From an uncultured delta proteobacterium (GTDB lineage: Bacteria > Desulfobacterota > Desulfobacteria > Desulfobacterales > B30-G6): DNA of 64,000 bases. The notes beneath the pieces were generated by a model. It saw only the letters and a program-made list of their open reading frames with translations, was not told the DNA's origin and ran no database searches. Each line of letters opens with the position of its first letter. The first letter of the stretch is position 1. The stretch spans positions 32,385 to 96,384 of the forward strand of contig CAVOZW010000007.1 of the NCBI GenBank assembly GCA_963701385.1, in the 5' to 3' direction. A program made the translations under genes and the position numbers. Positions 8,490 through 47,311 of this stretch are shown one piece after another.

Positions 8490-8580
8490 TGACGCCTCCG
8501 TAAAATATTAAGGGGTCGAGGGTCCAAGGGTTCGAGGAAAAGACCACAACGAACACAATAACCCCAATAAACGCAATAAA

Positions 8581-20517: not shown

Positions 20518-22950
20518 TTAATTTTTCGTATTTGGATCCACCAGCGGTAGTTTTGCGACCTTGGCTTTTACGCGCTGGTCCATCACCTGAACCTCCAGTT
20601 CGCGACCGTCATTGGCCAGTTCAAGGGGCAGGTATACCAGGCCGATATCCTTGCCGATGGTGTATCCGTAGCTGCCCGAACGGATGCGGTCGATGACTTT
20701 GCCGCCGGCATATACGGATTCACCGCCATAGAGATTGCCGCCGGCCTCCATGGTAAGTGCTACCAGCGTGGAACCCATTCCCTGCTTTTGTATTTTTTCC
20801 AGAGCCTCTTTGCCGATAAAATCGAATTTGCGCATATGCACGAACTTTCCTAAACCGGCTTTAAGGGGATTATCCCGCGGGGTAATATCACCACTCCAGT
20901 ACAAATAACCCTTTTCTATCCGTAAGGCATCCAGAGCCTTGTAACCGGCCGGTTGAATGCCATGCTCTTTGCCGGCTGTCATAAGCGCATCCCAGACCGT
21001 CAAGGCATCCTCCGGTTGAACGTACAGTTCCCAGCCAAGCTCACCAACATAGCTTACCCGCTGAGCCCATAGGCTGACATTTTCTATCTTGACAGCTTGG
21101 GCCGTCATGTAGGGAAAGGCTTCGTTTGACAGGTCACTGTCGCATACGGATCCAAATACCTTACGGGACGCTGGGCCCCATAACCCTAAACAACTCAGGC
21201 GTTCGGTCTCATCTTCAATCACAACCGACCCATCGCCCGGCATGTGCAGCTGGATCCATCCGAAATCGTTGGACACGAAAGAGGTTCCGGAAATGATCCT
21301 GAATTCATCCTCTTTCAGGCGCGTGACAGTCACATCGCTTTCAATTCCGCCTTTTGGATTGAGAAACTGGGTATAGGTTACCCTGCCCACAGGCGAGTCG
21401 ATATCATTGGCGGCCAGTTCCTGAAGAAGGCCCAGGGCCCCGGAACCGCGCACTCGAATCTTGCCGAAAGAGGTCATGTCGAAGAGCGCCACCCGCTCAC
21501 GGGCGGCTTTTACTTCACTGCCCACCAGATCAAAGAAAGGCGGTCGCTCCCAACCCCAGTTTTTCTGATCGGCACCCGCCTGTCTCCAGGGTTTTGCGGC
21601 ATCAAAGTAATTTGCCCGTTCCCAGCCGTTTTTTAGCCCGAAGACGGCACCCAGGCCTTTTAATCGGTCATAAAGGGGGCTGGTGCGTAAGGGTCGTCCC
21701 CACTCGTTTTCATCGTTGGGATAACGCAGGTGATAATAGTACCGGATCACTTCACGGCATTGTTCAACACGGAAGGTTTTGTCTTTCAGGTGTGGCCCGA
21801 AGCGCCGGATGTTCATTTCATGGGTATCGATGGAAGTCTCGCCTTCCAGAATCCACTCCGCCATCAGCATGCCCACGCCGCCACCGCCGGCAATACCGTT
21901 ATCGGAACCGCCGGCCGCAACATAGAATCCCTTGAGGCCGGGAACCGGACCCATGGCATAATAGCCGTCCGGTGTGAACGCATCAGGACCGTTGATAAGC
22001 TCGATTACCTGGGCTTGATTCAGGATGGGAATCCGCTTCATGGCGCCTTCCATGATGCCCTCAAACAACTCCCACTCGCCAGGCAGCAACGTCTGGGTAA
22101 AGCCCCATGGAACACCGTCTGTAGACCATGGTTTGGGATTGGTTTCAAATCCGCCCACCAGATAGGAACCGACATCCTCCCGACAGTAGAAAAGTCTGTC
22201 CGGATCTCTGATAACCGGCGTTTGTCTCGGCAATTCATGCCCTTCGATGGGTTTGGTGGTCAGGTACTGGTTCATCATAGAAACGATGGGGATGTGAACA
22301 CCCACCATTTCTCCGATGCGTGGCGCCCACTGGCCGGCGGCATTGACCACGCATTCGGTCTTGATGCTGCCGTGATCGGTTACGACTTCCTTAACCTCCC
22401 TGTTTCCTGAAAGCTTAATACCGGTGACAAGCACGTTGGTATGGATGTCAACACCCATTTTTCTGGCCAATCTCGCAAACTCGTATGTAATCCCGCTGGG
22501 GTCGATGTGCCCATCGTCCGGCACGTAAACAGCGCCGTAAAGACTCTCATCGCTCAGCTGGGGGCAACGTTCCATGACTTCTTTGGGCGATATGATATCG
22601 GCGGTCAGCCCGATGGCTTTGGCCCGACTTACCTCCCTTTGCAAGGCCTTCAAACGGTCTTTGGTACTGGCCAGCCGCAAGCTTCCCACCGTGTGCCAGC
22701 CCAGGGAATCACCGCCCTCCCCTTTGGCCAACTCATTGTAAAGATTGATGGTATAATTCATGACCTTCATGAGCGCCGGTGAGGTACGAAACTGGGAAAC
22801 CAGACCGACCGAATGAAAGGTCGTGCCGCTGGTAAGTTCACCTTTTTCCAGCAGAACGACATCGGTACAGCCCGCCTTGGCAAGATGGTAGGCCACGCTG
22901 GTTCCGAAAATGCCGCCACCGATAATGACGACCCGGGCTTGATTTCGCAT
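20518..22950 (-). CDS. dimethylglycine/sarcosine-dehydrogenase-like enzyme: FAD oxidoreductase (DAO) fused to GcvT folate-binding aminomethyltransferase domain
   Basis: N-terminal dinucleotide fold VVIIGGGIFGTSVAYHLAKAG. 810 aa. The C-terminal half has the GcvT-like pattern (FDMTSFGKIRVRG...YVGELGWELY...RIEKGY). Confidence 0.85.
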   Translation of the reverse strand: MRNQARVVIIGGGIFGTSVAYHLAKAGCTDVVLLEKGELTSGTTFHSVGLVSQFRTSPALMKVMNYTINLYNELAKGEGGDSLGWHTVGSLRLASTKDRLKALQREVSRAKAIGLTADIISPKEVMERCPQLSDESLYGAVYVPDDGHIDPSGITYEFARLARKMGVDIHTNVLVTGIKLSGNREVKEVVTDHGSIKTECVVNAAGQWAPRIGEMVGVHIPIVSMMNQYLTTKPIEGHELPRQTPVIRDPDRLFYCREDVGSYLVGGFETNPKPWSTDGVPWGFTQTLLPGEWELFEGIMEGAMKRIPILNQAQVIELINGPDAFTPDGYYAMGPVPGLKGFYVAAGGSDNGIAGGGGVGMLMAEWILEGETSIDTHEMNIRRFGPHLKDKTFRVEQCREVIRYYYHLRYPNDENEWGRPLRTSPLYDRLKGLGAVFGLKNGWERANYFDAAKPWRQAGADQKNWGWERPPFFDLVGSEVKAARERVALFDMTSFGKIRVRGSGALGLLQELAANDIDSPVGRVTYTQFLNPKGGIESDVTVTRLKEDEFRIISGTSFVSNDFGWIQLHMPGDGSVVIEDETERLSCLGLWGPASRKVFGSVCDSDLSNEAFPYMTAQAVKIENVSLWAQRVSYVGELGWELYVQPEDALTVWDALMTAGKEHGIQPAGYKALDALRIEKGYLYWSGDITPRDNPLKAGLGKFVHMRKFDFIGKEALEKIQKQGMGSTLVALTMEAGGNLYGGESVYAGGKVIDRIRSGSYGYTIGKDIGLVYLPLELANDGRELEVQVMDQRVKAKVAKLPLVDPNTKN

Positions 22951-23092: not shown

Positions 23093-23998
23093 ATGAATCT
23101 CAACCAGTTAAAAATTTTTTACATGGCCGCCAAACGAGGAAACCTGAGCAAGGCTGCGGAAGACCTCTTCATTACCCAGCCGGCGGTTACCAAGGGCATT
23201 CAACGAATTCAGGAGCACTACGATATCCGGCTGATGGATCGTTTCGGGAAAAAAATGGTATTGACCCACGCGGGAGAGGTCCTTTTCAATATTGCCGAAA
23301 AAATTTTCGAGCTGGAAAAACATGCCGAAGAAAGCATCCGCGAGTTCAAGCAGCGAAAAAAAGGACGCATTCGCATTCAAGCCAGTGAAAGTTTCGGCGC
23401 CTATTACCTGCCCTCCATTATGAATCCCTTTAGCAAGGCCCATCCATTGATACGTATTTCGGTGAATATCCTCCCCAGCGAGCATGTGGTCAACAATATT
23501 GCCGATTTAGAATGCGATATCGGATTTGTCTCCTATCCCATCGAGCATGACAAGGTATTTATCCGTGAGATACTCGAAGACCAGCTTGTCTTCATTTTAC
23601 CTCCGGATCATCCCATCTGCCGACGCAAACACTTTAAACCCAAGGATCTGGAAGGCAACCCGATGATCGTTCATGAAAAAAAATCGACGCCGCATCAGGT
23701 TTTCCATGAGTTTATCGAGAAAAATGAAATAGCCGTCACCTCGTCCTTAGAACTCTCGAGCAATCGGGCCATAAAACTGGCCGTTGAAAGCGGCCTGGGT
23801 ATTGCCCTGATCAGCCGGAAAGTTGCCGATGAAGAAATCCAAGCCGGTAAATTGATAGCTATCCCGGTTCCGGACCTGTCCATAAAAAGAAAATTTTACC
23901 TGGTTCATCACAAGGAAAAATTTATTTCGAATACCCTGCAACGCTTTATCGATCAGGTTGATCGATGGGCCGACGAATATGCAAGGCAGCTATCCTAA
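23093..23998 (+). CDS. LysR-family transcriptional regulator
   Basis: HTH MNLNQLKIFYMAAKRGNLSKAAEDLFITQPAVTKGIQRIQ. 301 aa. Divergent from the DMGDH-like gene, the classic LysR layout. Confidence 0.9.
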   Translation: MNLNQLKIFYMAAKRGNLSKAAEDLFITQPAVTKGIQRIQEHYDIRLMDRFGKKMVLTHAGEVLFNIAEKIFELEKHAEESIREFKQRKKGRIRIQASESFGAYYLPSIMNPFSKAHPLIRISVNILPSEHVVNNIADLECDIGFVSYPIEHDKVFIREILEDQLVFILPPDHPICRRKHFKPKDLEGNPMIVHEKKSTPHQVFHEFIEKNEIAVTSSLELSSNRAIKLAVESGLGIALISRKVADEEIQAGKLIAIPVPDLSIKRKFYLVHHKEKFISNTLQRFIDQVDRWADEYARQLS

Positions 23999-24333
23999 CG
24001 AGTTAATATCTTTTTGCCGGGGAAGGCACTTGAGATCAGATCGGCCGCTTTTTTTTTGTCACAGGTTCCAAACTCATCACTGCTCCCATACACAATGATG
24101 GTACCGCCTTCGTCAAACCGAACCCACGCGCCACCGGCCGGCACCAGCATCGAATTTTCGAATCCCAGGTCTTGAATTTCCTTGTTCGTGTTCTTTAGAA
24201 TTTCACGATGCCATTCATCGCCTGAACGAAGGCATACAAAGCCGTTGGCCTTCCCGCCCACAATACGGATCAACAGTATCTTTCCGCGATATCCTTCCCG
24301 AAAATCAACGGGGGCAATCAAATGCTGTGACAT
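23995..24333 (-). CDS. hypothetical protein (112 aa)
   Basis: Intact ORF co-oriented with the HAD/ALDH genes (MSQHLIAPVDFREGYRGKILLIRIVGGKANGFVCLRSGDEWH...). Weak SD and no recognised motif. Confidence 0.45.
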   Translation of the reverse strand: MSQHLIAPVDFREGYRGKILLIRIVGGKANGFVCLRSGDEWHREILKNTNKEIQDLGFENSMLVPAGGAWVRFDEGGTIIVYGSSDEFGTCDKKKAADLISSAFPGKKILTR

Positions 24334-24454: not shown

Positions 24455-25171
24455 TCACCCCAACAGCTCTAAAAGATCAATCAGCTGATCGAGTCGTGTG
24501 ATGATGGGAGAATCGGTGTCAACATCCGGCCAGTTCCGTTTTACCGAATGATGCTTGAGCCACACTGGCTGGATCCCTGCATTTTTCGCCCCGCAAATAT
24601 CTATCCGCCAGTCGTCGCCCACGAAAACGGCCTCGGGTGGAAAAACATTCAATTGTTCCAAACACAATCGAAAAGGTTCGACTTCGGGTTTCGGTGCTAT
24701 CCCCGATGCGCCTGCAACAACAATGACCTGAAAAAACCTTTCGAGTTTGGGAAACAGGGACAGACGATGATTGCCCGAGCTTTTCTGCCCCTGGGTGTTG
24801 GTAACGAGGGCCAATCGATACTTGTGTGAGAGATTTTCCAGTACTTGCATGGTTTCCGGGAAGGGATTGGTTCGCGAGCCAACCCCTTCCCAGTATTCAT
24901 TTTCCCACGTTTCAAAGCGTTCTGGATCCGGTTTGTGGTTTAACGCCTCATAGACTGCCTGCCATATGGCCTGTCTTGAAAAATTTGAATGCCGATGAAA
25001 TTCTTTACGAATCCGACGATATCGATCTAAAAAATCCTCCCAGGACAACTCGCCCGCTCTGGATGCCATATCGGAAAAAAGTCTCTCCTGGGCTTCTTTT
25101 TCAGCTGTACGAAACGCATCGGCCGAGTCGACCAGGGTTTGACCAAAATCAAACAGTACCGCCTTTATCAT
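24455..25171 (-). CDS. HAD-superfamily hydrolase (subfamily IA-like) lacking the D+2 general acid
   Basis: Motif I is VLFDFGQTLVD (D-x-G instead of D-x-D). Motif II LALVTNT. Motif III K in APKPEVEPF. Motif IV FVGDDWRIDICGA. The start abuts the ALDH stop. Confidence 0.85.
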   Translation of the reverse strand: MIKAVLFDFGQTLVDSADAFRTAEKEAQERLFSDMASRAGELSWEDFLDRYRRIRKEFHRHSNFSRQAIWQAVYEALNHKPDPERFETWENEYWEGVGSRTNPFPETMQVLENLSHKYRLALVTNTQGQKSSGNHRLSLFPKLERFFQVIVVAGASGIAPKPEVEPFRLCLEQLNVFPPEAVFVGDDWRIDICGAKNAGIQPVWLKHHSVKRNWPDVDTDSPIITRLDQLIDLLELLG

Positions 25172-26560
25172 TTAATCCTGGCCCCATTTCTCTATGTACC
25201 CCGCGCATAGATCCTCTGCAGACGGGATGTACTCTTCTTTGGGGATGGACAGCAGGGTATAATTGAGAAAGTTTTCCCAGTTGATGTTGCCGCTGAATAT
25301 ATTCCCGGCCCAGGAACCACAGCCCAGCGTATCAGTCGTGGGCAGACCGGTAACCCATCCACCGCTGTTGGCATGGGCGTGTGGCATGTTGCAGACGATC
25401 CGTCCCACATTCGCCCGCAGGGCGAGTTTGACGCGTCGCTCATCGTTTTCCGAATGAATGGAGGTGGAGTGCCCCTCGCCGGAAAACTTGAGAATTTTCT
25501 CCAACCGATCCAGCATCTCATCGAAATCGGTCCATTTCCATACCGTGAGTACCGGTGATATTTTTTCACCAGAAAACCGGTCTTCGGGGCCGATCTTTTC
25601 ACCGACCACCATCAGGAATTTGGTATCCTCAGGAACATTCAAACCCGCTTTTTCTGCAATAAATGTTGCCGGCCTGGCCACGATGTCACGGTTCAAGTGG
25701 CTCCCGTCCGGCCACATATACTTTCTGAGGGTTTCGCGTTCGTCCGTGCTGCACATATAACCACCTTCTGATTTAAGTGCCTCTAGCATGTCGTCGTAAA
25801 TACTTTCATAGAGGGCCACGGCATTTTCAGAAGAACAGGATGCCGAGTTGTTGGCAATCTTTGACAAGCGGATTTTATTGGCCGCAGCAGCCAGGTCGGC
25901 GGTTTCATCGACAATGGAAACGACATTGCCGGCCCCAACGGTCTGTGCCGGCTTGCCGGCAGCATAAACAACCTTGACCAAGGCTGCACCGCCTGTTGCA
26001 ACGGCATAGTCGCAATGGGCCATGACTTCGGCGGTTTTGGCATGACTGGTCTTTTTGATGCACTGCATCAGATCCACGGGTGCGCCGATCTTTTCCAGTG
26101 CTTTGCGAGCATGCTGAACCGTTTCATAAGAGGTCTTCTGGGTTCGCGGGTGAGGAGACACGATCTGAGCATTTCTCGTTTTCAGGGTACTCAGGGACAG
26201 GCAGCAGATGGTGGATTCGGGATTGGTACAGGGTACCACATTGGCAATCACGCCAATGGGCTTGGCGTATTTGCGTATACCGAGGGCTTTATTCTCCTCG
26301 ATGAGTCCACAGGTTTTGGCATTGCGCATGTCATAGAGCGTCCCGAGGGTTTTGTTCTTGATCTTATTTACCTTGTCCTGGGCGTTGCCAATGCCGGATT
26401 CATCCACGGCCATATGACCGAGTTTCACCCGAACATCCTCTTTCATAAACTCCCATGCCACGGCTTCAACCATTTCGTTGACTTTCTCCTGGGGCCAGAA
26501 CTCAACTTCCTTGAAGGCCTTTCGGGCGCGTGAATACATCTCTTGAACATTGTCTTCCAT
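25172..26560 (-). CDS. CoA-acylating aldehyde dehydrogenase of the SucD/SauS/EutE type
   Basis: 462 aa. Catalytic Cys block NNSASCSSENA. C-terminal TTDTLGCGSWAGN and PHPRTQKTS blocks resemble Clostridium SucD-type acylating dehydrogenases. GAGGAG SD. Confidence 0.85.
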   Translation of the reverse strand: MEDNVQEMYSRARKAFKEVEFWPQEKVNEMVEAVAWEFMKEDVRVKLGHMAVDESGIGNAQDKVNKIKNKTLGTLYDMRNAKTCGLIEENKALGIRKYAKPIGVIANVVPCTNPESTICCLSLSTLKTRNAQIVSPHPRTQKTSYETVQHARKALEKIGAPVDLMQCIKKTSHAKTAEVMAHCDYAVATGGAALVKVVYAAGKPAQTVGAGNVVSIVDETADLAAAANKIRLSKIANNSASCSSENAVALYESIYDDMLEALKSEGGYMCSTDERETLRKYMWPDGSHLNRDIVARPATFIAEKAGLNVPEDTKFLMVVGEKIGPEDRFSGEKISPVLTVWKWTDFDEMLDRLEKILKFSGEGHSTSIHSENDERRVKLALRANVGRIVCNMPHAHANSGGWVTGLPTTDTLGCGSWAGNIFSGNINWENFLNYTLLSIPKEEYIPSAEDLCAGYIEKWGQD

Positions 26561-26590: not shown

Positions 26591-26630
26591 TATAATTTTT
26601 GGATCTTCTCCCAATTAGATGGGAGAAAGG
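26591..26630 (-). repeat. palindromic upstream element, copy A (TCTCCCA-ATTAGA-TGGGAGA plus an A/T box)
   Basis: Read toward the gene: TCTCCCATCTAATTGGGAGA-AGATCCAAAAATTATAA. The hairpin ends 46 nt before the ALDH start codon (26560). Confidence 0.7.
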
Positions 26631-26777: not shown

Positions 26778-27911
26778 CTAATTTAAGGGCAAGCTGTATC
26801 CCATCTCTTGAAAGGCCTCTTTGGCCACAACAAAAAAATCCCCGATATCCTTTTCCGTAATAAGGCCCAAGTTACACAACCGGAAGGTCTGGAGACCGAA
26901 CATTTTTCCCGGGTAAATGGTAAACCCCCGTTCGAAACAGTAATCGTGCAGCTTGAAAAAATCGAACTTATCGTCTTCCGGTGCCCGCACGGTCACCACC
27001 AGATGCCCTTGAATCTTTTTGTCGATCACCGTTCCAAGACCCATTTCCGCCAGCCCTTTGTGAACCGCCTCCCAGCACTTGGTCAGCCTAGCCCATCGGG
27101 TCTGCTCCCCCTCTTGAAAGTACTCTTTGATGGCCTGCTGCAATGCATACATGGTTTGCACAGGGGGAGTAAAATGCATCTCTCCGACACGCTCAAAAAA
27201 ATCGTACTGCATGAACAGGTTGCAGTAATAGGAGCGCGTGGGGTAGTCTTTTGATTTTTTGATCTCTTCAATGTTACCGATCGTCCAGGAAGCACCGGTC
27301 ATGGCGGCGAGCCCCTTTTGCGCCGAAGACATGAGAAAGTCGATATTCTGTTCTTGAATGTCTATGGGAAGCAGGCCGTAGGTCGATATGGTGTCCACCA
27401 CGAAAATGGCACCGTTGTCATGCGCCATGCGACCGATTTCCTTTATGGGGTTGAGGACGCCTGTACCGGTTTCATGGTGGACGGTTGCCACCACGGCGAT
27501 GTCCTTTTCCTTTTCCAGCGTATCTTTTACAACCGCAAGGTCCGGCAGTTCGGTGGAAGAGAACTTGAGATCGACACAGGGGATATGGTAATATTCGGCG
27601 ATCTCCACCATCCTGGCCGAGTAGGCCCCATTGTTGACCACGCATATTTTTTTGCCTTTAGGAACCAGCGAGTTCACCAGGACATCCTGGATAATGGTTC
27701 CGGAACCGGTAAATATGACCGCACTATATTTTTCAGGATCCCCGTGAACCACCCTCACAAGATCTTTGCGAACACTGGTCATGATGTCCACGAATTCCTG
27801 TTCTCTGGGACAAATGTCCGGCACGACCTGAGCGTATTTCACGGCGTCGCTGGTGGTTGCCGGACCCGGGTTCAGCAAAACATTTCTTTTGACAGGTTTG
27901 ATCACTTCCAT
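26778..27911 (-). CDS. class-V aminotransferase, PhnW-like (2-aminoethylphosphonate:pyruvate transaminase family)
   Basis: Contains LLNPGPATTSDAVK and the PLP-lysine block SSAQKGLAAMTG. 377 aa. AGGGAGG SD. The substrate assignment rests on family resemblance plus the PhnS-like transporter nearby. Confidence 0.75.
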   Translation of the reverse strand: MEVIKPVKRNVLLNPGPATTSDAVKYAQVVPDICPREQEFVDIMTSVRKDLVRVVHGDPEKYSAVIFTGSGTIIQDVLVNSLVPKGKKICVVNNGAYSARMVEIAEYYHIPCVDLKFSSTELPDLAVVKDTLEKEKDIAVVATVHHETGTGVLNPIKEIGRMAHDNGAIFVVDTISTYGLLPIDIQEQNIDFLMSSAQKGLAAMTGASWTIGNIEEIKKSKDYPTRSYYCNLFMQYDFFERVGEMHFTPPVQTMYALQQAIKEYFQEGEQTRWARLTKCWEAVHKGLAEMGLGTVIDKKIQGHLVVTVRAPEDDKFDFFKLHDYCFERGFTIYPGKMFGLQTFRLCNLGLITEKDIGDFFVVAKEAFQEMGYSLPLN

Positions 27912-28015: not shown

Positions 28016-29095
28016 TTACAGCTTTCCAACCGTCTTGATTCCCGATTTCTTGCTGGGGTCCTTAACCTCTTCAATGATACTGAAGCCACTGCCACGAACA
28101 TTTTTCATTTTTTCAAAACGCTGCTTCCATTCACTAGGGGTCGTGCAAATCGCCGGAGTGGCCACTTTTTCCCGATCAGACAGGGGCGGGACCGGCCGAT
28201 CTTCGGGACCGTCATAGTCTTCTTTGGGTGTTAACTCCTGCCCCAGCCGGTTGGCCGCTTCCCTCTCGACTTCTTCAATATAATGGGCACCGGCTGCAAA
28301 AGAACGCGTGACGGCCAGGATCGCCCAGGTGGCCTCCGGGGTAAATCCCAGATCCATCATGGCGGCACCGGTGGCACCCAGCATATCCAGATCCACCGGC
28401 TCGCTAGAGGCCTTCTGCGCCGCCTTGACGATTTCTTTTGTAAAGGCAGTGTACTTCCCTGCTGTTCCGAGTTTTTCCGCGCGTGCCAGCATGCGTTTTG
28501 CAGCCGGGTCTTTGAGCATAAGACCCGAAACACCCAGGGCCTCGTCGTTGAGATTCTCCTTCACGAGCAGCTCAGCTGCAGCCTGAAGGGAAAGGTTCGT
28601 CTCTTTTGTCAAGCTCAAATAGGTTTCGAGCCTGTTCCCAAACGTTGAAAAAGCGCCGTAAGCATGACCAAATGCCATGATGGATGCACCGCAGGCCTGG
28701 GTTAAAAAGGTCTTGGATCTGGCCACGATTCTGGATATGGCCGCCGGTGCGGACAATCCGTCTTCGAGCGTCAGGATCATGATGTAATTGAGCATCTTTT
28801 CTTCTTCGACGGTGGGTATTCGCGCCTGGTAATCCACGAAAAGGACCTCGATGACCCCGTAGCCCTCTTCCATCAATTCGGTCGTGTCGTACCCCCTGGT
28901 AACGATCCGGTGCACATTCTTGTACGCAACTTCCGACACCCACTGGAACGGTGCTCTTTTCGAATCCTTTGGAACGGTGCCATATTCTCTGTCGTAATAG
29001 TCAAAGGGATTCTTGGGGCTGCCGAGATTTCCGATGGTGCGCTCCCTTTTCAGTTTATTCAGCGCATCCGTTTTTTCTTTATCTAGATAACCCAT
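28016..29095 (-). CDS. citrate-synthase/citryl-CoA-lyase-fold protein, divergent (subunit A)
   Basis: RGYDTTELMEEGYGVIEVLFVDYQARIPTVEEEKMLNYIMILTLEDGLSAPA...IMAFGHAYGAF follows the citrate-synthase large-domain pattern, but the GFGH...DPR block is degenerate (GVSGLMLKDPAAK). It overlaps the upstream paralogue by 13 nt. Confidence 0.65.
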   Translation of the reverse strand: MGYLDKEKTDALNKLKRERTIGNLGSPKNPFDYYDREYGTVPKDSKRAPFQWVSEVAYKNVHRIVTRGYDTTELMEEGYGVIEVLFVDYQARIPTVEEEKMLNYIMILTLEDGLSAPAAISRIVARSKTFLTQACGASIMAFGHAYGAFSTFGNRLETYLSLTKETNLSLQAAAELLVKENLNDEALGVSGLMLKDPAAKRMLARAEKLGTAGKYTAFTKEIVKAAQKASSEPVDLDMLGATGAAMMDLGFTPEATWAILAVTRSFAAGAHYIEEVEREAANRLGQELTPKEDYDGPEDRPVPPLSDREKVATPAICTTPSEWKQRFEKMKNVRGSGFSIIEEVKDPSKKSGIKTVGKL

Positions 29096-29979
29096 TGTTT
29101 GTATTCTCCTTCTTCCTTTTGTTTCTTGGCGTATTCCTGTCGTTCCGCCTGCTTGGGAACAATTCTGTCCTCAGGCCCCACATACTTGATCATGGACAAG
29201 TCTATCATCTGCACCATCGGTTCGTTTCTGCTGGCCCCCCATGCACGTCCCTTTTTCATATTGAACAGCGCATGCGCCGCACAGCTGAATCCTCGAACCA
29301 CACTGCCGATACACCATCCCGCATTCGGCGAAAAGCCAATTTCCATCAGGGCGGTGTTCCCAGAGCCCACCACGTTCACCCCCACATAGGAGCGTCCATC
29401 CGCCTTGCGCCTGGCGTGAAAGTGTTTTTCCACGGCCCTTTGAAATTCCAGATAAACCCCTTTGAGTTCCAGTTCTTCTTGCTTGAGGTGGATCGGTTCC
29501 GCCCTGGGATCACTGTCGATGTGCTGGGGTTGACCCATACCCATGACGGGTCGCCCGGCTTCCATGTATTCATCCACCAGAATTTTGGCCATTTCATCGA
29601 TGGTTTTGCCCTCCTTTTGGGCACGTTCCAGGTACTTGTTTAACATGTACCCGTGAGCCGCTCCCGGGCCATGGACACCACCAAAAGTAGAAACCGCTGC
29701 CGCCACACAAACGGGAAGGTTCGGTCTGCCTGCACTCACACCGATGGCACCCACCGCCGATGGTGACATGGAATGCTCCAGGAACACCCCCATTTCGTAC
29801 TTGAGCATTTTTTCTTCTTTTTGGGTGGGAATTCGGTCTTGAAAGAGGACAAACATGGCATCATAAAACGAATAGCCCTCTTCAGCCATGTCACTGAGGT
29901 TGTACCCGCGCATCACGGTTTTTTCTTCCGTTTTGTAAGAAATAGATGTCTTTCTTCTAACCGACGGTTTTCTCTCCAT
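29083..29979 (-). CDS. citrate-synthase/citryl-CoA-lyase-fold protein, divergent (subunit B)
   Basis: MRGYNLSDMAEEGYSFYDAMFVLFQDRIPTQKEEKMLKYEMGVFLEHSMSPS...FGGVHGPGAAHG...GMGQPQHIDSDPRA. Start chosen at ATG 29979, behind a strong SD (GGAGGAAAAA). The track start 30084 is unlikely. Confidence 0.65.
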   Translation of the reverse strand: MERKPSVRRKTSISYKTEEKTVMRGYNLSDMAEEGYSFYDAMFVLFQDRIPTQKEEKMLKYEMGVFLEHSMSPSAVGAIGVSAGRPNLPVCVAAAVSTFGGVHGPGAAHGYMLNKYLERAQKEGKTIDEMAKILVDEYMEAGRPVMGMGQPQHIDSDPRAEPIHLKQEELELKGVYLEFQRAVEKHFHARRKADGRSYVGVNVVGSGNTALMEIGFSPNAGWCIGSVVRGFSCAAHALFNMKKGRAWGASRNEPMVQMIDLSMIKYVGPEDRIVPKQAERQEYAKKQKEEGEYKQWVI

Positions 29980-30062: not shown

Positions 30063-30091
30063 TTAATAAACAAACTGTAATCATAGGTCAA
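30063..30091 (-). promoter_or_regulatory. putative sigma70-type promoter for the citrate-synthase-like/PhnW-like operon (TTGACC-17 nt-TATTAA)
   Basis: RC of 30086-30091 is TTGACC and RC of 30063-30068 is TATTAA, with an exact 17-nt spacer. About 85 nt upstream of ATG 29979. Confidence 0.4.
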
Positions 30092-30356: not shown

Positions 30357-30389
30357 CCTTTCCCAATTAAATGGGAGAAGCCCTATTAT
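30357..30389 (+). repeat. palindromic upstream element, copy B (TTCCCA-ATTAAA-TGGGAGA plus an A/T box)
   Basis: CCTTTCCCAATTAAATGGGAGA-AGCCCTATTATTAT. The hairpin ends 43 nt before GTG 30422 of the SGNH-like gene. Confidence 0.6.
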
Positions 30390-30421
30390 TATGTAAGGTT
30401 ACCTGTTCTGAGGTCTCTAGC

Positions 30422-31090
30422 GTGTTACATCAGGTCCTGTTTATCGGTAACAGTCATACCTATTTGAATTACATGCCCCGAATGCTTTCGGCGCTCGTCG
30501 CTTCAGAGGATCGGGGTTTCACGCTGCTTGTCGATCAATGCACAGGGGACGGGACCGGTCTTGAGTGGCACTGGAAAAATCCGCCTACCCGGGATGCCAT
30601 CCGGAAAAAACCGTGGGACTATGTTGTTTTGCAGGAACGTAGCGCTGGCCCGTTGGAAGAGCCGGACGCTTTTGCACGGTATGCCGAGTTGCTGGATGCA
30701 GAGATTCGAAGTCAAGGCGCCAAAACAATCTTGTTTTTGACCTGGGCCAACCGTTCACGGCCCGAAACCCAGGCTGTTTTGACAAATGCCTACACCATGA
30801 CGGCATGCAAGCTCAAAGCCGCCCTGGCGCCGGTGGGTCGGGCGTGGGAGGCTATCCACAGGATTGCTCCCGGGTGTGAATTGCATCATCGGGATGGCCG
30901 TCATGCCAATCCTGTCGGATCTTACCTCACGGCCTGTGTGTTTTATTCCGTGTTGTTCAACACAAGCCCCCAAGGGCTTACCGGACGCTTCTATTTCAAA
31001 GGTAAGATGTGGGTGGATCTGGAAAAAGACAGGGCCTCGTTGCTGCAGCAAGTGGCCTGGGAGACCTTCTCGAACAGGGGCCCCCTGTAA
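30422..31090 (+). CDS. SGNH/GDSL-like hydrolase-fold protein
   Basis: Block I VLFIGNSHTY and block V DGRHANPVGSYL. The GTG 30422 start (GAGG 8 nt upstream) is preferred over the track ATG 30371, which lies inside a palindromic upstream element. Confidence 0.55.
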   Translation: MLHQVLFIGNSHTYLNYMPRMLSALVASEDRGFTLLVDQCTGDGTGLEWHWKNPPTRDAIRKKPWDYVVLQERSAGPLEEPDAFARYAELLDAEIRSQGAKTILFLTWANRSRPETQAVLTNAYTMTACKLKAALAPVGRAWEAIHRIAPGCELHHRDGRHANPVGSYLTACVFYSVLFNTSPQGLTGRFYFKGKMWVDLEKDRASLLQQVAWETFSNRGPL

Positions 31091-31406: not shown

Positions 31407-32462
31407 ATGAAACGTTTTCATTCAAACAGTTCAGTTCGTTTCTGGGGGATCTTGCTCGGGTTTGCTGCCGTGCTGGCTTTCATCGGCGTCTCCAACGTGT
31501 GCGCCGCGGAGATTCTAGTCTATACCGCACTCGAAGACGATGAATTGGCCATCTACATGAAAGATTGGGAAGCCAAACACCCCGATATCAAGGCAAACAT
31601 TGTGCGGGACTCCACGGGCATTGTCACGGCAAAATTGCTGGCGGAAAAAGACAATCCCAGGGCGGATCTCATCTGGGGTGTGTCAGCCACCAGTCTGCTC
31701 GTCTGTGACCAGGTCGGCATGCTCATCGGGTACAATCCCAAGGGAATTGAAAAGCTAAAACCCGCTTTCTTTGATCAGAAGAACAAGGAAGCTCACTGGA
31801 CCGGCCTCAAAGCCTACATGACCGGTTTTGTGGGAAACACCATCGAAATGAAAGCCAAGGGGCTCAAAATGCCGCAGTCCTACGCGGATCTTCTGGACCC
31901 CATGTACAAAGGGCAACTCGTCATGCCCAATCCCGCTTCATCCGGAACCGGTTTTCTGACGGTTTCCGCCATTCTTCAGATCATGGGCGAAGAGGCCGGC
32001 TGGGATTACCTGGACAAACTCCACCAGAACATCGCCGTATACACCCATTCCGGTTCCAAGCCCGCCAAGATGGCCGGCAAAGGCGAATACCCCATCGGCA
32101 TCTCTTTTGCCTACCGGGGATTCAAACAAATGAAAAGCGGGGAACCGGTTGTGGTGGCCTTTCCCAAGGAAAAATCCGGATGGGAAGTTGAAGCCAACGG
32201 CCTCATAAAAAAGCCCAAGATCAAGAAAGAAGCCAAGATCTTCCTCGACTGGGCCATCAGCGACGACGCCTACAAAATGTATGCCACGGTCTATCCCATC
32301 ATCGGTTCCAAAGTGGTCCCGGTTACCGTACCCGATGGATATCCCGCGGATCCCGTCGTACAGCTCATCGACAACGACTTTGACTGGGCTGCAAGAAACC
32401 GTTCCGCGATCCTGAAAGAATGGACCATGCGCTACGACGGTAAGAGTGAGCCCAAAAGCTAA
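31407..32462 (+). CDS. ABC transporter periplasmic substrate-binding protein, PhnS-like (2-aminoethylphosphonate/Fe3+ cluster)
   Basis: Signal peptide, then [11 protein letters not shown]...[25 protein letters not shown]...[12 protein letters not shown]...[23 protein letters not shown]. From memory this matches the putative 2-AEP binding-protein family. GGAGGA SD. Confidence 0.75.
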
Positions 32463-32500
32463 TCGGTCGGGCACACTGCATTATAAGAGATTAACCTTTA

Positions 32501-32540
32501 CCGGCGTGCCCCTTAATGGGGCATGCCGGCCCTTTTTTTA
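32501..32540 (+). terminator. rho-independent terminator/attenuator between the binding-protein and ATPase genes
   Basis: CCGGCGTGCCCC-TTAAT-GGGGCATGCCGG (12-bp stem, one G-T) followed by CCCTTTTTTTAA. Intra-operon hairpins after SBP genes are common in ABC operons. Confidence 0.7.
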
Positions 32541-32553
32541 AGGAGTCCTTCCG

Positions 32554-33681
32554 ATGCCACCCGAATCGGCAAAAACTAACAATGGCGGTACGTTTTTGGA
32601 AGTCAAACATGTGACAAAAACATTTGGGCGTTTTGTTGCGCTGGAAGATGTCTCCATTGACGTATACCCCGGGGAACTGGTCTGTATCTTAGGGCCCAGC
32701 GGTTGCGGGAAAACCACCCTTTTGCGTGTCATCGCAGGATTGGAAGAACAGAATGTGGGTCAGGTTTTTTTAAAAGGCAAGGATATCTCTCGCATGCCCA
32801 CCTCCCAACGGGAATGCGGTATCGTTTTCCAATCCTATGCCCTGTTCCCAAACCTGACGGCCACTCAGAACGTGGCCTATGGTCTCAAGGGCTCAAAATT
32901 CGAAAAAGGGCAAAAAGTCGCCAGGACCCGGGAGATGCTCGAGTTGGTCGACTTATCTGAAATCGGAAAAAAATACCCTGCTCAGCTTTCGGGCGGTCAG
33001 CAGCAACGGGTGGCGCTGGCTCGCGCGCTGGCACCAAGCCCTGCCATGCTGCTCCTGGATGAACCGCTTTCAGCGCTCGATGCACAGGTCCGGATTTATC
33101 TTAGAAGTGAAATTCGTGATCTCCAGCAACGCCTCCAGATTACCACTATCATGGTTACCCATGACCAGGAAGAAGCCCTGACCATGGCGGATCGGATCAT
33201 CCTCATGGATGCCGGCCGCATTATCCAGTGTGCCTCGCCCCAGTCCATCTATCACACACCGGATGATACGTTTGTGGCGGGGTTTATCGGCGCCATGAAT
33301 TTTCTGGAGGGCTGGACAGTCATAAATGAAAACACCCTCACCTACGGAAACCTGACCCTTAAAACAATGAACGGAAAAGCCAAGCAGTTTCAGGGCAGAG
33401 AAACGACGGTCACCATACGCCCTGAAGACATCAGGGTTCTCGATGAAGATAAGAGCGGTGAAAATATTCTTTTCACGGTGGTTGAAAAAATCGAGTTTCG
33501 CGGCGCATCTTACCGCTTGTTCCTGCGCCTGAAAATCGACGATCCGGGTCTGGACGCTCCGGTGATCGAGGTGGATCTCGCCGCCGAGAAGATCAAGCGA
33601 TTCAAAATCAAACTGGAGAGCATAGTGCCGGTTTACCTCCCCCCGGAACGATTGTTGATATTTAGACCAGCAGGATCTTGA
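32554..33681 (+). CDS. ABC transporter ATP-binding protein (PotA/PhnT-like, with C-terminal TOBE-like domain)
   Basis: Walker A GPSGCGKTT, signature LSGGQQQRVALARAL, Walker B LLLDEPLSALD, H-loop VTHDQ. Confidence 0.9.
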   Translation: MPPESAKTNNGGTFLEVKHVTKTFGRFVALEDVSIDVYPGELVCILGPSGCGKTTLLRVIAGLEEQNVGQVFLKGKDISRMPTSQRECGIVFQSYALFPNLTATQNVAYGLKGSKFEKGQKVARTREMLELVDLSEIGKKYPAQLSGGQQQRVALARALAPSPAMLLLDEPLSALDAQVRIYLRSEIRDLQQRLQITTIMVTHDQEEALTMADRIILMDAGRIIQCASPQSIYHTPDDTFVAGFIGAMNFLEGWTVINENTLTYGNLTLKTMNGKAKQFQGRETTVTIRPEDIRVLDEDKSGENILFTVVEKIEFRGASYRLFLRLKIDDPGLDAPVIEVDLAAEKIKRFKIKLESIVPVYLPPERLLIFRPAGS

Positions 33682-33811
33682 ACTTAAGAAGCATTTAGAA
33701 ACGATGTTATCAAGCGCAACAATGTCACCTCTTCGCAAGAAGTGCGACCACTCAGGAAAAATCTGGGCCAGCGGCGCGGAATAGGTAAATACAAAAGATC
33801 TCGGACAATCC

Positions 33812-35920
33812 ATGCCAACAATAGATACAATAAGTAACGAACAGGACATTCATAAAAACAAAACCGCATTCGATCCCCAAAGCGTGGTTTTAAAGAAGGT
33901 CCGCCAGAATACCAGCGCAGAGAACTGGCTCAAAAGGGCATTGATTTTCCTCCTGGTCCTCTGGATGCTCGTTGCCGTCGTTCTTCCCGTATACCAACTT
34001 ATCGATCGCAGCATGCACGCCGAAGTCCTGGTATCCATCTGGGGAAGTGACGATGTGCGCATTGGCGGAAGACGCGTCTATATTGACGGCGAAACCCTGC
34101 AATTGAATATCGACAAGAAATCGTTCCCCCTGACCAACAACATCCTTTCGTACGATGGTATCACGGTGGATATACGGGATAACCGCATCTACCAGGTATC
34201 CTGTACCAAAGCGATGAATTACGCAGAGCCGGTAAAGATAAAAGAGGTCACCACCCGGATTGATGGGGACCGCTATTTCATCGACGGTGTCCTGTTAGAG
34301 GGTGATGAATACAGTGGCCAGGTTGACCGATGGATCGGGCTGAGCAACTTTGTGAGCTATTTTACCAATGAAGCCCTCTACTATTCTGTTTTCAACAGTC
34401 TTTTCGTTTCCGTGGTCACCACCTTCGTCGCCGTCATTCTCGCGCTGGTATACGCCTATGCGGTCACCCGGACCCTGATTCCGGGAAAGGCCTTTTTCCG
34501 GGTGGTTGCCATGCTGCCCCTGTATGCACCCACCATGCTGTACGGTCTGTCACTTGTTTTTATCTTCGGCAACAAAGGATTCATTACTACCGGCTTTTTC
34601 GGCCACCTGCCTTGGCTGGCCTGGGATATCGGGCTGTACGGCCCCGTGGGAATTATCATCGCCGAGGTGGTGTTCACCTTTCCGGCCGCCTACATGATTC
34701 TCATGGTTTCGTTGCTCAACACCGACGCCCGACTCTACGAAGCGGCCATCAGCCTGGGTGCCAAAAAACCACGCATCTTTTTTACGGTGACCCTCCCCGG
34801 GATAAAGTTCGGCCTGGTAAGCGCTATTTTCGTCTGTTTTACCCTATGCTTTACCGATTTCGGTGCCCCCAAAGTCGTGGGCGGGAACTACAACATCCTG
34901 GCAGTTGATATTTACAAACAGGTCATCGGCCAGCAGAATTTTGGCATGGGCGCCACCATCAGCATTATTCTGCTCATTCCGGCGGTCATCTCCTTTATGG
35001 CGGATAGAATCGTACAGCGACGGCAGGTGGTCGCCATGACTGCCAGAAGCGTGCCCTATACACCCAAACGCAATTGGAGCACGGACACGGCGATGTTTAC
35101 CATCGCATCCCTGATTGCCGGTTTTATACTCGCCATGCTGTTTGCCGGTGGATTCGGATCCCTGGTAAAAATGTGGCCCTATGACTTCTCCCTCGGCCTG
35201 TGGCATTACACTTTTAGAGATGTAGGCGGCGGCGGATACGGTGCCTTCTGGAACAGTATCCGCATGGCAAGCTATTCGGCCATTCTCGGAACCATGATCA
35301 CCTTTGGATCGGCCTATCTCATCGAAAAAACCCGGCGGGTGGCCATTCTGAGACAGACGTCCTATTTTCTTTCCATTCTGCCCCTTGCGCTGCCCGGCCT
35401 GGTCATCGGCATCGCCTACATCTTTTTTTTCAATACCACGCACTTCACCATCCCGTTGACGAATATTTCAATCGCAAATCCGGCCTATGCCCTGTACGGT
35501 ACGCTCTGGATCCTGGTCATCGCCAATATCATCCATTTCTACACGGTCAGCTTTCTAACCGCCACCTCTGCACTGCGGCAACTCGACAAGGAATTCGAAA
35601 CCGTGTCCGAGTCCATGTCCGTTCCCTTTTATCGGACATTTTTCCGCGTAACCGTTCCGGTCTGCTTTCCGGCCATTGTAGAAATCGCCATGTACCTTTT
35701 TGTCAGTTCCATGGCAACGGTTTCGGCGGTTATTTTTCTGTATTCCTCGGACACGACCCTTGCGTCCGTGGCCGTCGTCAACATGGATGATGCCGGAGAT
35801 CAGGCGCCCGCAGCCGCCATGTGCATGCTCATCGTTCTTTCCAACATTGTAGTGAGAATCGCCAGCGAGGTGGTCAACGCGATTTTCAGAAGATCAACCT
35901 CGGCCTGGCGGACGAAATAA
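33812..35920 (+). CDS. fused double-domain ABC transporter permease (PhnU/PhnV- or FbpB-like) with large extracytoplasmic insert
   Basis: 702 aa with two permease halves, each ending in an EAA-like loop (YEAAISLGAKKPRIFFTVTLP and SESMSVPFYRTFFRVTVP). About 150 hydrophilic residues lie between TM1 and TM2. Confidence 0.85.
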   Translation: MPTIDTISNEQDIHKNKTAFDPQSVVLKKVRQNTSAENWLKRALIFLLVLWMLVAVVLPVYQLIDRSMHAEVLVSIWGSDDVRIGGRRVYIDGETLQLNIDKKSFPLTNNILSYDGITVDIRDNRIYQVSCTKAMNYAEPVKIKEVTTRIDGDRYFIDGVLLEGDEYSGQVDRWIGLSNFVSYFTNEALYYSVFNSLFVSVVTTFVAVILALVYAYAVTRTLIPGKAFFRVVAMLPLYAPTMLYGLSLVFIFGNKGFITTGFFGHLPWLAWDIGLYGPVGIIIAEVVFTFPAAYMILMVSLLNTDARLYEAAISLGAKKPRIFFTVTLPGIKFGLVSAIFVCFTLCFTDFGAPKVVGGNYNILAVDIYKQVIGQQNFGMGATISIILLIPAVISFMADRIVQRRQVVAMTARSVPYTPKRNWSTDTAMFTIASLIAGFILAMLFAGGFGSLVKMWPYDFSLGLWHYTFRDVGGGGYGAFWNSIRMASYSAILGTMITFGSAYLIEKTRRVAILRQTSYFLSILPLALPGLVIGIAYIFFFNTTHFTIPLTNISIANPAYALYGTLWILVIANIIHFYTVSFLTATSALRQLDKEFETVSESMSVPFYRTFFRVTVPVCFPAIVEIAMYLFVSSMATVSAVIFLYSSDTTLASVAVVNMDDAGDQAPAAAMCMLIVLSNIVVRIASEVVNAIFRRSTSAWRTK

Positions 35921-46586: not shown

Positions 46587-46627
46587 ATTATCTCCCAACC
46601 AATTGGGAGAAGAGCCAAAATTATTAA
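46587..46627 (+). repeat. palindromic upstream element, copy C (TCTCCCAA-CCAA-TTGGGAGA plus an A/T box)
   Basis: AATTATCTCCCAACCAATTGGGAGA-AGAGCCAAAATTATTAA. The hairpin ends 47 nt before ATG 46658. Confidence 0.7.
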
Positions 46628-46657: not shown

Positions 46658-47311
46658 ATGCAACATAGCGTGTCTATAGACAGTTCATTGAGTGATAAAG
46701 ACCTTCGAATAATTTCCACACTTGATTCGCCGGGCAGGATACAGGCTTTTCTTGATTCAATACCCTATAGCAGCGAGCCTATTTATCGTTGTCCATTACA
46801 GGTTATCCAGGATCGGGTTGCTCATTGTTTCGACGGCGCCTTGTTCGCCGCTGCAGCTTTACGCCGAATAGGCTTTCCGCCTTTAATTCTGGACATGATT
46901 CCTGATGGGCGCGATGATGACCATCTCTTGGCCTTGTTCAAACAGGAGGGGCATTGGGGGGCGATCGCCAAATCAAACTTTGCCGGATTGAGGTTCCGAG
47001 AACCCATTTTTCGCAATCTGCGAGAATTGGTTTTATCGTATTTTGAACAATATTATAATATTGAACGTGAAAAAACGCTACGAGGCTATACCTTGCCGTT
47101 AAATCTCAAGACGTTTGACAGGTTTGACTGGATGACAAGTGATACGTCCTTGGAACGAATTGCCCAGCGGTTGGACGAAATTAAAAGATTCTTTTTTCTA
47201 ACCCAAAAGATGATAGCCAATCTGTCAACCGTCGATGAGCGATTGTACAAAGCAGGCTTGCATGGTGCAAACGAGGCTGGATTATTTGACCCCAAAGAGA
47301 AAATTGACTAG
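46658..47311 (+). CDS. hypothetical protein with possible transglutaminase/cysteine-peptidase-like Cys-His core
   Basis: The spacing of VAHCFDGALFAAAALRRIGFPP ... DDHLLALFKQEGHWGAIAKS resembles a transglutaminase-like core. GAGG SD. The family assignment is tentative. Confidence 0.55.
   Translation: MQHSVSIDSSLSDKDLRIISTLDSPGRIQAFLDSIPYSSEPIYRCPLQVIQDRVAHCFDGALFAAAALRRIGFPPLILDMIPDGRDDDHLLALFKQEGHWGAIAKSNFAGLRFREPIFRNLRELVLSYFEQYYNIEREKTLRGYTLPLNLKTFDRFDWMTSDTSLERIAQRLDEIKRFFFLTQKMIANLSTVDERLYKAGLHGANEAGLFDPKEKID

Follow-up and report, generated by a model that had tools for sequence, protein, structure and literature searches.

A 64,000-nt stretch of DNA from an uncultured delta proteobacterium (Desulfobacterales; B30-G6; assembly GCA_963701385.1, contig CAVOZW010000007.1, positions 32,385–96,384 of the forward strand), referred to below as the window, carries two adjacent genes whose products, here called CclB and CclA, resemble citryl-CoA lyase (CCL). 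On balance, we favour the view that they form a heteromeric CCL-fold enzyme, CclAB, which would cleave the carbon–phosphorus (C-P) bond of phosphonoacetyl-CoA in a CoA-dependent route for the degradation of 2-aminoethylphosphonate (AEP). The cassette in which they lie very probably serves the catabolism of AEP and hydroxy-2-aminoethylphosphonate (HAEP). We infer the identity of the thioester, the bond that is cleaved, the products and the assembly of the two proteins into a heteromer.

The two genes lie on the minus strand and overlap by 13 nt (29083–29095), the cclB stop codon falling inside cclA. An earlier reading of the window made from the letters alone, the sequence-only reading, had described adjacent paralogues of 359 and 298 aa with this overlap and strong Shine-Dalgarno sites. 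The open reading frames, the GGAGG and GAAGGAG sites and an identity of 30.5% over 275 aa agree with that description. A 333-aa frame starting at 30084 was considered for CclB and rejected as overlong because essentially all homologues are 298 aa. Each gene is present in single copy in the 4.69-Mb genome. The pair heads a minus-strand string, as had also been described, with the order CclB-CclA-PhnW-like-SauS-like-HAD(-Janus). A promoter and terminator scan found no terminator-like site on the minus strand inside this operon; the rest of the scan was no better than chance.

Membership of the citrate synthase/CCL fold, proposed by the sequence-only reading, was borne out by profile searches and predicted structures. 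The Pfam Citrate_synt model (PF00285) gives 53.6 bits with CclB and 28.0 bits with CclA against a gathering cut-off of 27, and the nearest solved structure by sequence is the Hydrogenobacter thermophilus CCL (6hxp; E = 2.5e-19 for CclB and 1.1e-11 for CclA). AlphaFold2 monomer models, with pLDDT values of 92.1 (CclB) and 83.2 (CclA), have 6hxp as their top Foldseek match (E = 2e-13 and 6.6e-11, target-normalised TM 0.80 and 0.78, respectively), and the first ranks are taken by 6hxp together with the CCL modules of ATP-citrate lyases. These predicted models confirm a CCL fold for both proteins. The NCBIfam cut-offs for CCL are not reached, the best model (NF004869) scoring 113.9 bits with CclB and 94.8 with CclA against 212. 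No succinyl-CoA-synthetase-like or citryl-CoA synthetase (CCS) partner was found near the pair, as had been remarked before, the sole Ligase_CoA genes being located on contig C16, and none was seen across 80 genome loci carrying CclB.

In citrate synthase the catalytic roles are played by His274, His320, Asp375, Arg329 and Arg401. Equivalents of these residues in ATP-citrate lyase (ACLY) are H900, D1026 and R1065 (PMC10115795). The corresponding positions in the Ccl proteins were read from an alignment with CCL-like relatives. The enolate-stabilising His (FGSAH in CCL; His274/H900) is kept in CclB as His103 (FGGVH) and is Tyr146 in CclA (FGHAY), where an invariant His144 lies two residues before the canonical position. 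The second His (GYGH; His320) is Gln150 in CclB and Val189 in CclA, both invariant among orthologues. The catalytic Asp (NVDG; Asp375/D1026) is Val204 in CclB and Leu239 in CclA, the latter preceded by two residues by an invariant Asp237. The Arg of the DPR motif is kept in CclB (Arg159) and is Ala198 in CclA, while the Arg401 equivalent (R1065) is kept in both, as Arg229 in CclB and as an invariant Arg264 in CclA. Of the canonical triad, only the enolate-stabilising His remains, in CclB, and the replacements are invariant across phyla. The sequence-only reading had noted that both proteins deviate at the catalytic blocks; indeed the motifs it quoted are present and invariant across orthologues, and the triad is kept in neither subunit. 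As judged from the alignment, the residues predicted to abstract the proton and to polarise the oxaloacetate carbonyl are replaced in both subunits. These replacements are fixed. Neither subunit can be a canonical CCL or citrate synthase, an assignment that was rejected given the loss of the triad, the scores below cut-offs and the lack of a CCS partner.

Conservation is high in both subunits: 171 of the 298 residues of CclB (81 sequences) and 128 of the 359 of CclA (73 sequences) are at least 98% conserved across several phyla. One subunit had been described as degenerate, but CclA is constrained rather than decaying, with this conservation and with an invariant His144 and Asp237 of its own.

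CclAB is best compared with CCL (6hxp) and the CCL/CSH module of ACLY, with which it shares fold and size class. Like CCL, it would bind an acyl-CoA and leave the acetyl-CoA enolate on cleaving it, and CclB keeps the equivalents of His274/H900, the DPR Arg and Arg401/R1065 (ACLY names from PMC10115795). It differs in being a proposed heteromer of two paralogues whereas CCL is a homo-oligomer, in having other residues, in each subunit, in place of the second His and the catalytic Asp (D1026 of ACLY), in its context, which is phosphonate catabolism and not the reductive tricarboxylic acid cycle, and in the bond proposed to be cut, which is C-P and not C-C.

Genomic context was compared across the 80 loci, the denominators being those loci with enough flanking sequence for each test. 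CclA directly follows CclB in 73/73 loci and a SauS-like acylating dehydrogenase lies no more than 5 kb downstream of CclB in 53 of 54. Of 35 well-flanked loci, 31 carry PhnW or PbfA; in three of the remaining four an HpnZ-like alcohol dehydrogenase takes their place. The HAD hydrolase is found in 37/48 loci. The Janus/Ocnus gene, whose E-W-H motif is invariant, is an optional member (11 of the 35 well-flanked loci). Conservation of the pair with its neighbours, which the sequence-only reading had suggested examining, is thus evident, and the pair it called an orphan is not one in function: pair and dehydrogenase are conserved together and set among phosphonate genes.

Several of these genes exceed curated cut-offs. 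The putative AEP importer, encoded on the other side of the pair, scores 440.5 (cut-off 392.75), 463.8 (457.7) and 704.8 bits (593.25) for PhnS2, PhnT2 and PhnU2, respectively. The aminotransferase is predicted from its profile match to turn AEP into phosphonoacetaldehyde. For the acylating dehydrogenase, proposed from its family and position to make phosphonoacetyl-CoA from this aldehyde, the SauS model outscores the AdhE and EutE-type models in a profile search and matches over the full length. The substrate of SauS is likewise an anionic 2-substituted acetaldehyde, whereas the window dehydrogenase falls below the equivalog cut-off (488.9 bits against 600) and its context is phosphonate, not sulfonate. 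The step that had seemed impossible to place in any described route is placed in AEP/HAEP catabolism by PhnS2T2U2, PhnW and PbfA, all above curated cut-offs.

Variant loci carry other genes of the same kind. One from the Planctomycetota (Sedimentisphaerales; L081) includes PhnW (486 against 400.8 bits), PbfA (700 against 525), an HpnZ-like dehydrogenase, a PhnX-like HAD below cut-off and two non-pyrrolysine MtmB-family genes, the set directly preceding CclB, CclA and the dehydrogenase. A second (L057) has PhnW (590 bits), phn_DUF6, an HpnZ-like dehydrogenase and a Pit-like permease with a TIGR00153 partner. In a third (L088; G136:C53, 4601–15632), a divergent module with a 71% identical CclB is accompanied by a lysophospholipase-like hydrolase, glycerol kinase (GlpK), a second HAD and a PhnA-like phosphodiesterase-family protein (230 bits against a cut-off of 407), a gene set that suggests phosphonolipid use. 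In L093 the module lies beside PHO4/PhoU_div. Class-III aminotransferases occur in some clusters, the one in L081 being PbfA. Phosphate transporters recur beside variant clusters, at 11971–13560 in L093, at 8865–10495 in L057 (Pit-like/TIGR00153) and, as an Na/Pi symporter with PhoU, at 8567–9772 in L086; this fits phosphate disposal when phosphonates serve as carbon source. As their assigned functions would have it, every feeder enzyme of the clusters converges on phosphonoacetaldehyde.

To our knowledge, few types of enzyme break C-P bonds: phosphonatase, phosphonoacetate and phosphonopyruvate hydrolases, C-P lyase and the PhnY*/PhnZ oxygenases. They have been studied mainly in aerobic or facultative bacteria. 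In the window genome, which is 95% complete, and in 18 CclB-positive relatives of the same order, no match to PhnX above cut-off was found; PhnA had no match in this genome and none above cut-off in the 18 relatives (absent from 19/19). PhnJ of the C-P lyase had no match in this genome, and PhnY none above cut-off (best match 239 bits against 636). An AEP importer and aminotransferase without a known C-P-cleaving enzyme imply that something else in the cluster must cleave the bond. Together, the phosphonate surroundings and the failure to find PhnX, PhnA and PhnJ argue that the missing step is C-P cleavage of phosphonoacetyl-CoA.

The L086 variant points to the same substrate. Its CclB (P0121) is 59% identical to that of the window and is accompanied by a CclA partner, and downstream of the pair come genes for CoA-transferase subunits A and B, a dehydrogenase resembling HpnZ (299 bits against a cut-off of 328), ferredoxin, aldehyde:ferredoxin oxidoreductase and the Na/Pi symporter. 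Neither the acylating dehydrogenase nor the HAD was found in the 7 kb that are visible. The route would run from hydroxyethylphosphonate through phosphonoacetaldehyde and phosphonoacetate to phosphonoacetyl-CoA. L086 would reach the same thioester through the free acid, and the acyl-CoA is therefore the likely common substrate of CclAB. Plain hydrolysis of the thioester is unlikely because activation by the CoA-transferase precedes it in L086, and hydrolysis would be futile. If CclAB yields acetyl-CoA, this could in turn be the CoA donor and close the CoA-transferase cycle. Cleavage also regenerates the donor thioester in the oxalyl-CoA decarboxylase/formyl-CoA transferase and malonate decarboxylase systems. 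L086 would share with these cycles the activation of an acid followed by regeneration of the donor, although the folds are unrelated and phosphate, not CO2, would be lost; the analogy is one of logic only. The sequence-only reading had proposed a heteromeric enzyme acting on a CoA thioester made by its neighbour. The neighbour-made thioester and the pairing of subunits draw support from the invariable adjacency (73/73), translational coupling, the dehydrogenase in 53/54 loci and the CoA-transferase variant; the hydrolysis option is what the order of events in L086 makes unlikely.

In the pathway that we propose, PhnS2T2U2 would import AEP, the PhnW/AepZ-type enzyme would transaminate it to phosphonoacetaldehyde and the SauS-like dehydrogenase would oxidise this to phosphonoacetyl-CoA. 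CclAB would bind the thioester as CCL binds citryl-CoA, with the phosphonate in the position of the oxaloacetate moiety. Phosphonoacetyl-CoA can be written X-CH2-CO-SCoA, where X is the phosphonate, and CCL cuts at the same methylene carbon via the acetyl-CoA enolate. Cleavage of the C-P bond could be promoted by stabilisation of the acetyl-CoA enolate leaving group by His103 of CclB, and the two retained arginines of CclB could hold the dianionic phosphonate. The residues that have been lost would be those needed only for deprotonation of acetyl-CoA and polarisation of the oxaloacetate carbonyl. Water or an enzyme nucleophile would attack phosphorus to give phosphate and the enolate, whose protonation would yield acetyl-CoA, the products being acetyl-CoA and phosphate. 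The energy of aldehyde oxidation would be kept as a thioester, which would be sensible for an anaerobe that draws its carbon from AEP. The HAD and, where present, the PHPT1-like protein may accept or strip off the phosphoryl group, or dispose of a side product; the Janus/Ocnus gene is compatible with a phospho-His intermediate but does not show it.

This scheme shares with the PhnW-PhnX and PhnW-PhnY-PhnA pathways the entry steps (importer, PhnW, PbfA) and phosphonoacetaldehyde as the hub. It also shares with the PhnX and PhnA routes the logic by which a beta-carbonyl is made a good electron sink before C-P cleavage. In CclAB, with its citrate-synthase fold, this role would fall to a thioester enolate; PhnX uses a Schiff base on a HAD fold, and PhnA, which has an alkaline-phosphatase fold, a metal-bound carboxylate enolate. 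In contrast to both routes, the product proposed for CclAB is acetyl-CoA, which would save the energy of aldehyde oxidation.

A number of points weigh against this scheme. We know of no enzyme of the citrate-synthase fold that acts at phosphorus, and the mechanism as we infer it names neither the nucleophile nor the acid that protonates the enolate. The L086 variant is known from two metagenomic contigs only, and some clusters contain a PhnX-like HAD (TIGR03351, below cut-off). The HAD conserved with the module lacks the D+2 acid, as phosphonatase does, and could itself be a C-P hydrolase. It might then act on phosphonoacetaldehyde, as a convergent phosphonatase after which the dehydrogenase would turn acetaldehyde into acetyl-CoA, or on phosphonoacetyl-CoA, with CclAB downstream or accessory. 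Its motif I, D-x-G without a general acid, resembles phosphonatase and dehalogenases; in the conserved sequence D-F-G-Q-T, Gly occupies the general-acid position (D+2) in 40 of 45 orthologues. The HAD is found in most testable loci (37/48), and the family of the dehydrogenase includes acetaldehyde dehydrogenases. We nevertheless think it unlikely that the HAD is the real C-P hydrolase. In its cap Arg52, Arg55 and Arg66 are invariant, but there is no invariant Lys, which makes the Schiff-base mechanism that phosphonatase needs unlikely, and the phosphonatase model TIGR01422 gave no match to the HAD in a whole-genome search; identification of the window HAD as a phosphonatase is unsupported. The HAD is also the least conserved member of the cassette (36 of 238 residues invariant, 47–74% identity), 11 of 48 loci lack it, as does L086 in its visible part, and the dehydrogenase scores higher on SauS, with its anionic substrate, than on acetaldehyde dehydrogenases. 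Furthermore, CclAB, the most conserved and always-present part, would be left without a function.

Other roles for CclAB itself have to be considered. By analogy with the decarboxylative condensation of malonyl thioesters, it might be a "dephosphonylating" Claisen enzyme in which a 2-oxoacid (oxaloacetate or glyoxylate) captures the enolate from phosphonoacetyl-CoA, yielding citryl-CoA, malyl-CoA or the free acid. Formation or cleavage of C-C bonds is the activity of every known member of the fold, and Arg159 and Arg229 of CclB, equivalents of oxaloacetate-binding arginines, are kept along with Arg264 of CclA. This is decidedly unlikely in our estimation: the carbonyl-polarising His is Gln in CclB and Val in CclA, the L086 CoA-transferase would have no regenerated CoA donor, and no conserved gene of the clusters supplies or uses a 2-oxoacid. 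Equivalent chemistry on another X-CH2-CO-SCoA, either desulfonation of sulfoacetyl-CoA (taurine/isethionate) or decarboxylation of malonyl-CoA (beta-alanine), might be suspected from the nearness of the dehydrogenase to SauS and from the class-III aminotransferases of some clusters. That appears very improbable, as the transporters and aminotransferases are phosphonate equivalogs, the class-III enzyme of L081 being PbfA (700 against 525 bits), the clusters showed no sulfonate-specific genes, and it is phosphate transporters, not sulfite exporters, that recur beside them. The sulfonate reading is further weakened because the genome already has a true Xsc elsewhere (913 against 676 bits, contig C17). 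A taurine/sulfoacetaldehyde route was rejected as the principal explanation in view of the phosphonate equivalogs and of this Xsc, and the taurine and beta-alanine routes that the sequence-only reading had mentioned are unsupported. Lastly, citrate synthase hydrolyses citryl-CoA, and CclAB might be a mere thioesterase, one of the options raised earlier, releasing phosphonoacetate to be excreted or cleaved by another enzyme. There is very little to recommend this: in L086 a thioesterase would undo the work of the CoA-transferase in a futile cycle, PhnA was not found in any of the 19 genomes tested, and hydrolysis would waste the thioester where a non-acylating PhnY-type enzyme would suffice. 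Cleavage of the C-P bond of phosphonoacetyl-CoA by CclAB is the reading we retain.

Relatives of both subunits are numerous: 516 were detected for CclB and 1332 for CclA, the best 120 of each being 77–100% identical to the query, and their source labels are "citrate synthase", "hypothetical protein" or none. Among 1.84 billion representatives of 50%-identity clusters there are 389 matches at E ≤ 1e-3. Genome loci with CclB, mostly metagenome-assembled genomes (MAGs) and chiefly from sediment, occur in Desulfobacterales, other Desulfobacterota, SAR324, Planctomycetota, Latescibacterota, Anaerolineales, Spirochaetales, Verrucomicrobiota and one Hyphomicrobiales MAG. Within the order of the window the distribution is patchy (19 of 151 genomes, 16 of 110 genera). 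In a maximum-likelihood tree CclA and CclB are each monophyletic (100/100 and 100/99) and are sisters (97/94), nested in a clade (100/99) of CCL-like proteins lacking the Asp and apart from canonical CCL-like sequences. Distant Asp-less CCL-like genes were also observed as a pair with CoA-transferases and an acyl-CoA dehydrogenase (L092, 4210–9116) and as a single gene with CoA-transferases and an aldehyde dehydrogenase (L090, 3401–6496), a hint that acyl-CoA lyases with the CCL fold form a broader family, as yet uncharacterised.

Table 1. Features of the window in and around the cclB-cclA cassette
Feature	Position	Strand	Remarks
CclB	29083–29979	-	298 aa, CCL-fold subunit; GGAGG 6 nt before ATG
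CclA	28016–29095	-	359 aa, CCL-fold paralogue of CclB, extended at both termini; GAAGGAG upstream
PhnW/AepZ-type AEP aminotransferase	26778–27911	-	TIGR03301, 416 bits (cut-off 360.8); in line in Desulfobacterota-type loci
CoA-acylating aldehyde dehydrogenase, nearest SauS	25172–26560	-	NF047625, 488.9 bits, full length, below cut-off of 600
HAD-family hydrolase	24455–25171	-	Motif I D8-F-G10-Q-T, no Asp at D+2
Janus/Ocnus-family protein (family of the 14-kDa phosphohistidine phosphatase, PHPT1)	23995–24333	-	112 aa; PF05005, 42 bits
LysR-family regulator	23093–23998	+	Convergent with operon end; beside cluster in many loci; similar LysR in L086
FAD and GcvT-domain enzyme (dimethylglycine-oxidase-like)	20518–22950	-	810 aa; beside cluster in 5/80 loci, including L001, L041, L055 and L072 (downstream or nearby)
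DUF4886 protein	30371–31090	+	Divergent from CclB; recurs in a minority of loci
PhnS2-PhnT2-PhnU2, putative AEP ABC importer	31407–35920	+	All above equivalog cut-offs
Palindrome TCTCCCA-N5-TGGGAGA with A/T-rich box	26591–26630	-	Copies at 30357–30389 and 46587–46627

Some further features accompany the cassette. The Janus/Ocnus gene of the window links a bacterial homologue of PHPT1 to phosphonate catabolism. Three further paralogues of the 810-aa FAD/GcvT enzyme, with 37–43% identity, occur in the genome of this apparently anaerobic host; the window enzyme is possibly a demethylating feeder for N-methylated aminophosphonates. In the Planctomycetota, pairs of full-length MtmB-family genes without an in-frame stop (non-pyrrolysine) lie between PbfA and CclB (L081, 7154–9958; also L070, L077 and L079) and may carry out corrinoid-dependent demethylation of N-methyl-AEP. 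A saccharopine-dehydrogenase-like gene lies between PbfA and CclB in some clusters of that phylum (L083, 8819–9988; L063, about 6819). Copies of the palindrome are found upstream of three genes, those for the acylating dehydrogenase, the DUF4886 protein and an orphan 217-aa open reading frame (46658–47311) with no Pfam match, and may constitute an operator shared by these genes, to which the LysR regulator perhaps binds.

The cassette is widespread in anaerobic sediment bacteria and is undescribed in the searchable literature. Full-text searches found no CoA-dependent phosphonoacetaldehyde route, although papers outside the open literature may exist. The sole mention of phosphonoacetyl-CoA that was found is as a predicted, unobserved product in a preprint on flavophos biosynthesis, and neither a 2023 review of phosphonate degradation nor a 2025 context-analysis paper mentions a CoA step or a citrate-synthase-like gene.

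Whether CclAB founds a new class of C-P-cleaving enzymes, for which "phosphonoacetyl-CoA phosphonohydrolase" would be a suitable name, is in our view evenly balanced. Such a class would define a CoA-dependent, energy-conserving route by which aminophosphonates serve as C, N and P source in anaerobic sediment bacteria (Desulfobacterota, Planctomycetota and others), perhaps via a phospho-enzyme resolved by HAD or PHPT1-like proteins. AEP is the most abundant biogenic phosphonate. If the proposal is true, it would add new chemistry to the textbook citrate-synthase fold, explain the mineralisation of AEP by strict anaerobes in marine sediments and give a function to more than 1000 proteins labelled "citrate synthase" or "hypothetical". 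Anaerobic turnover of phosphonates, within the marine phosphorus redox cycle, would also gain a marker gene.

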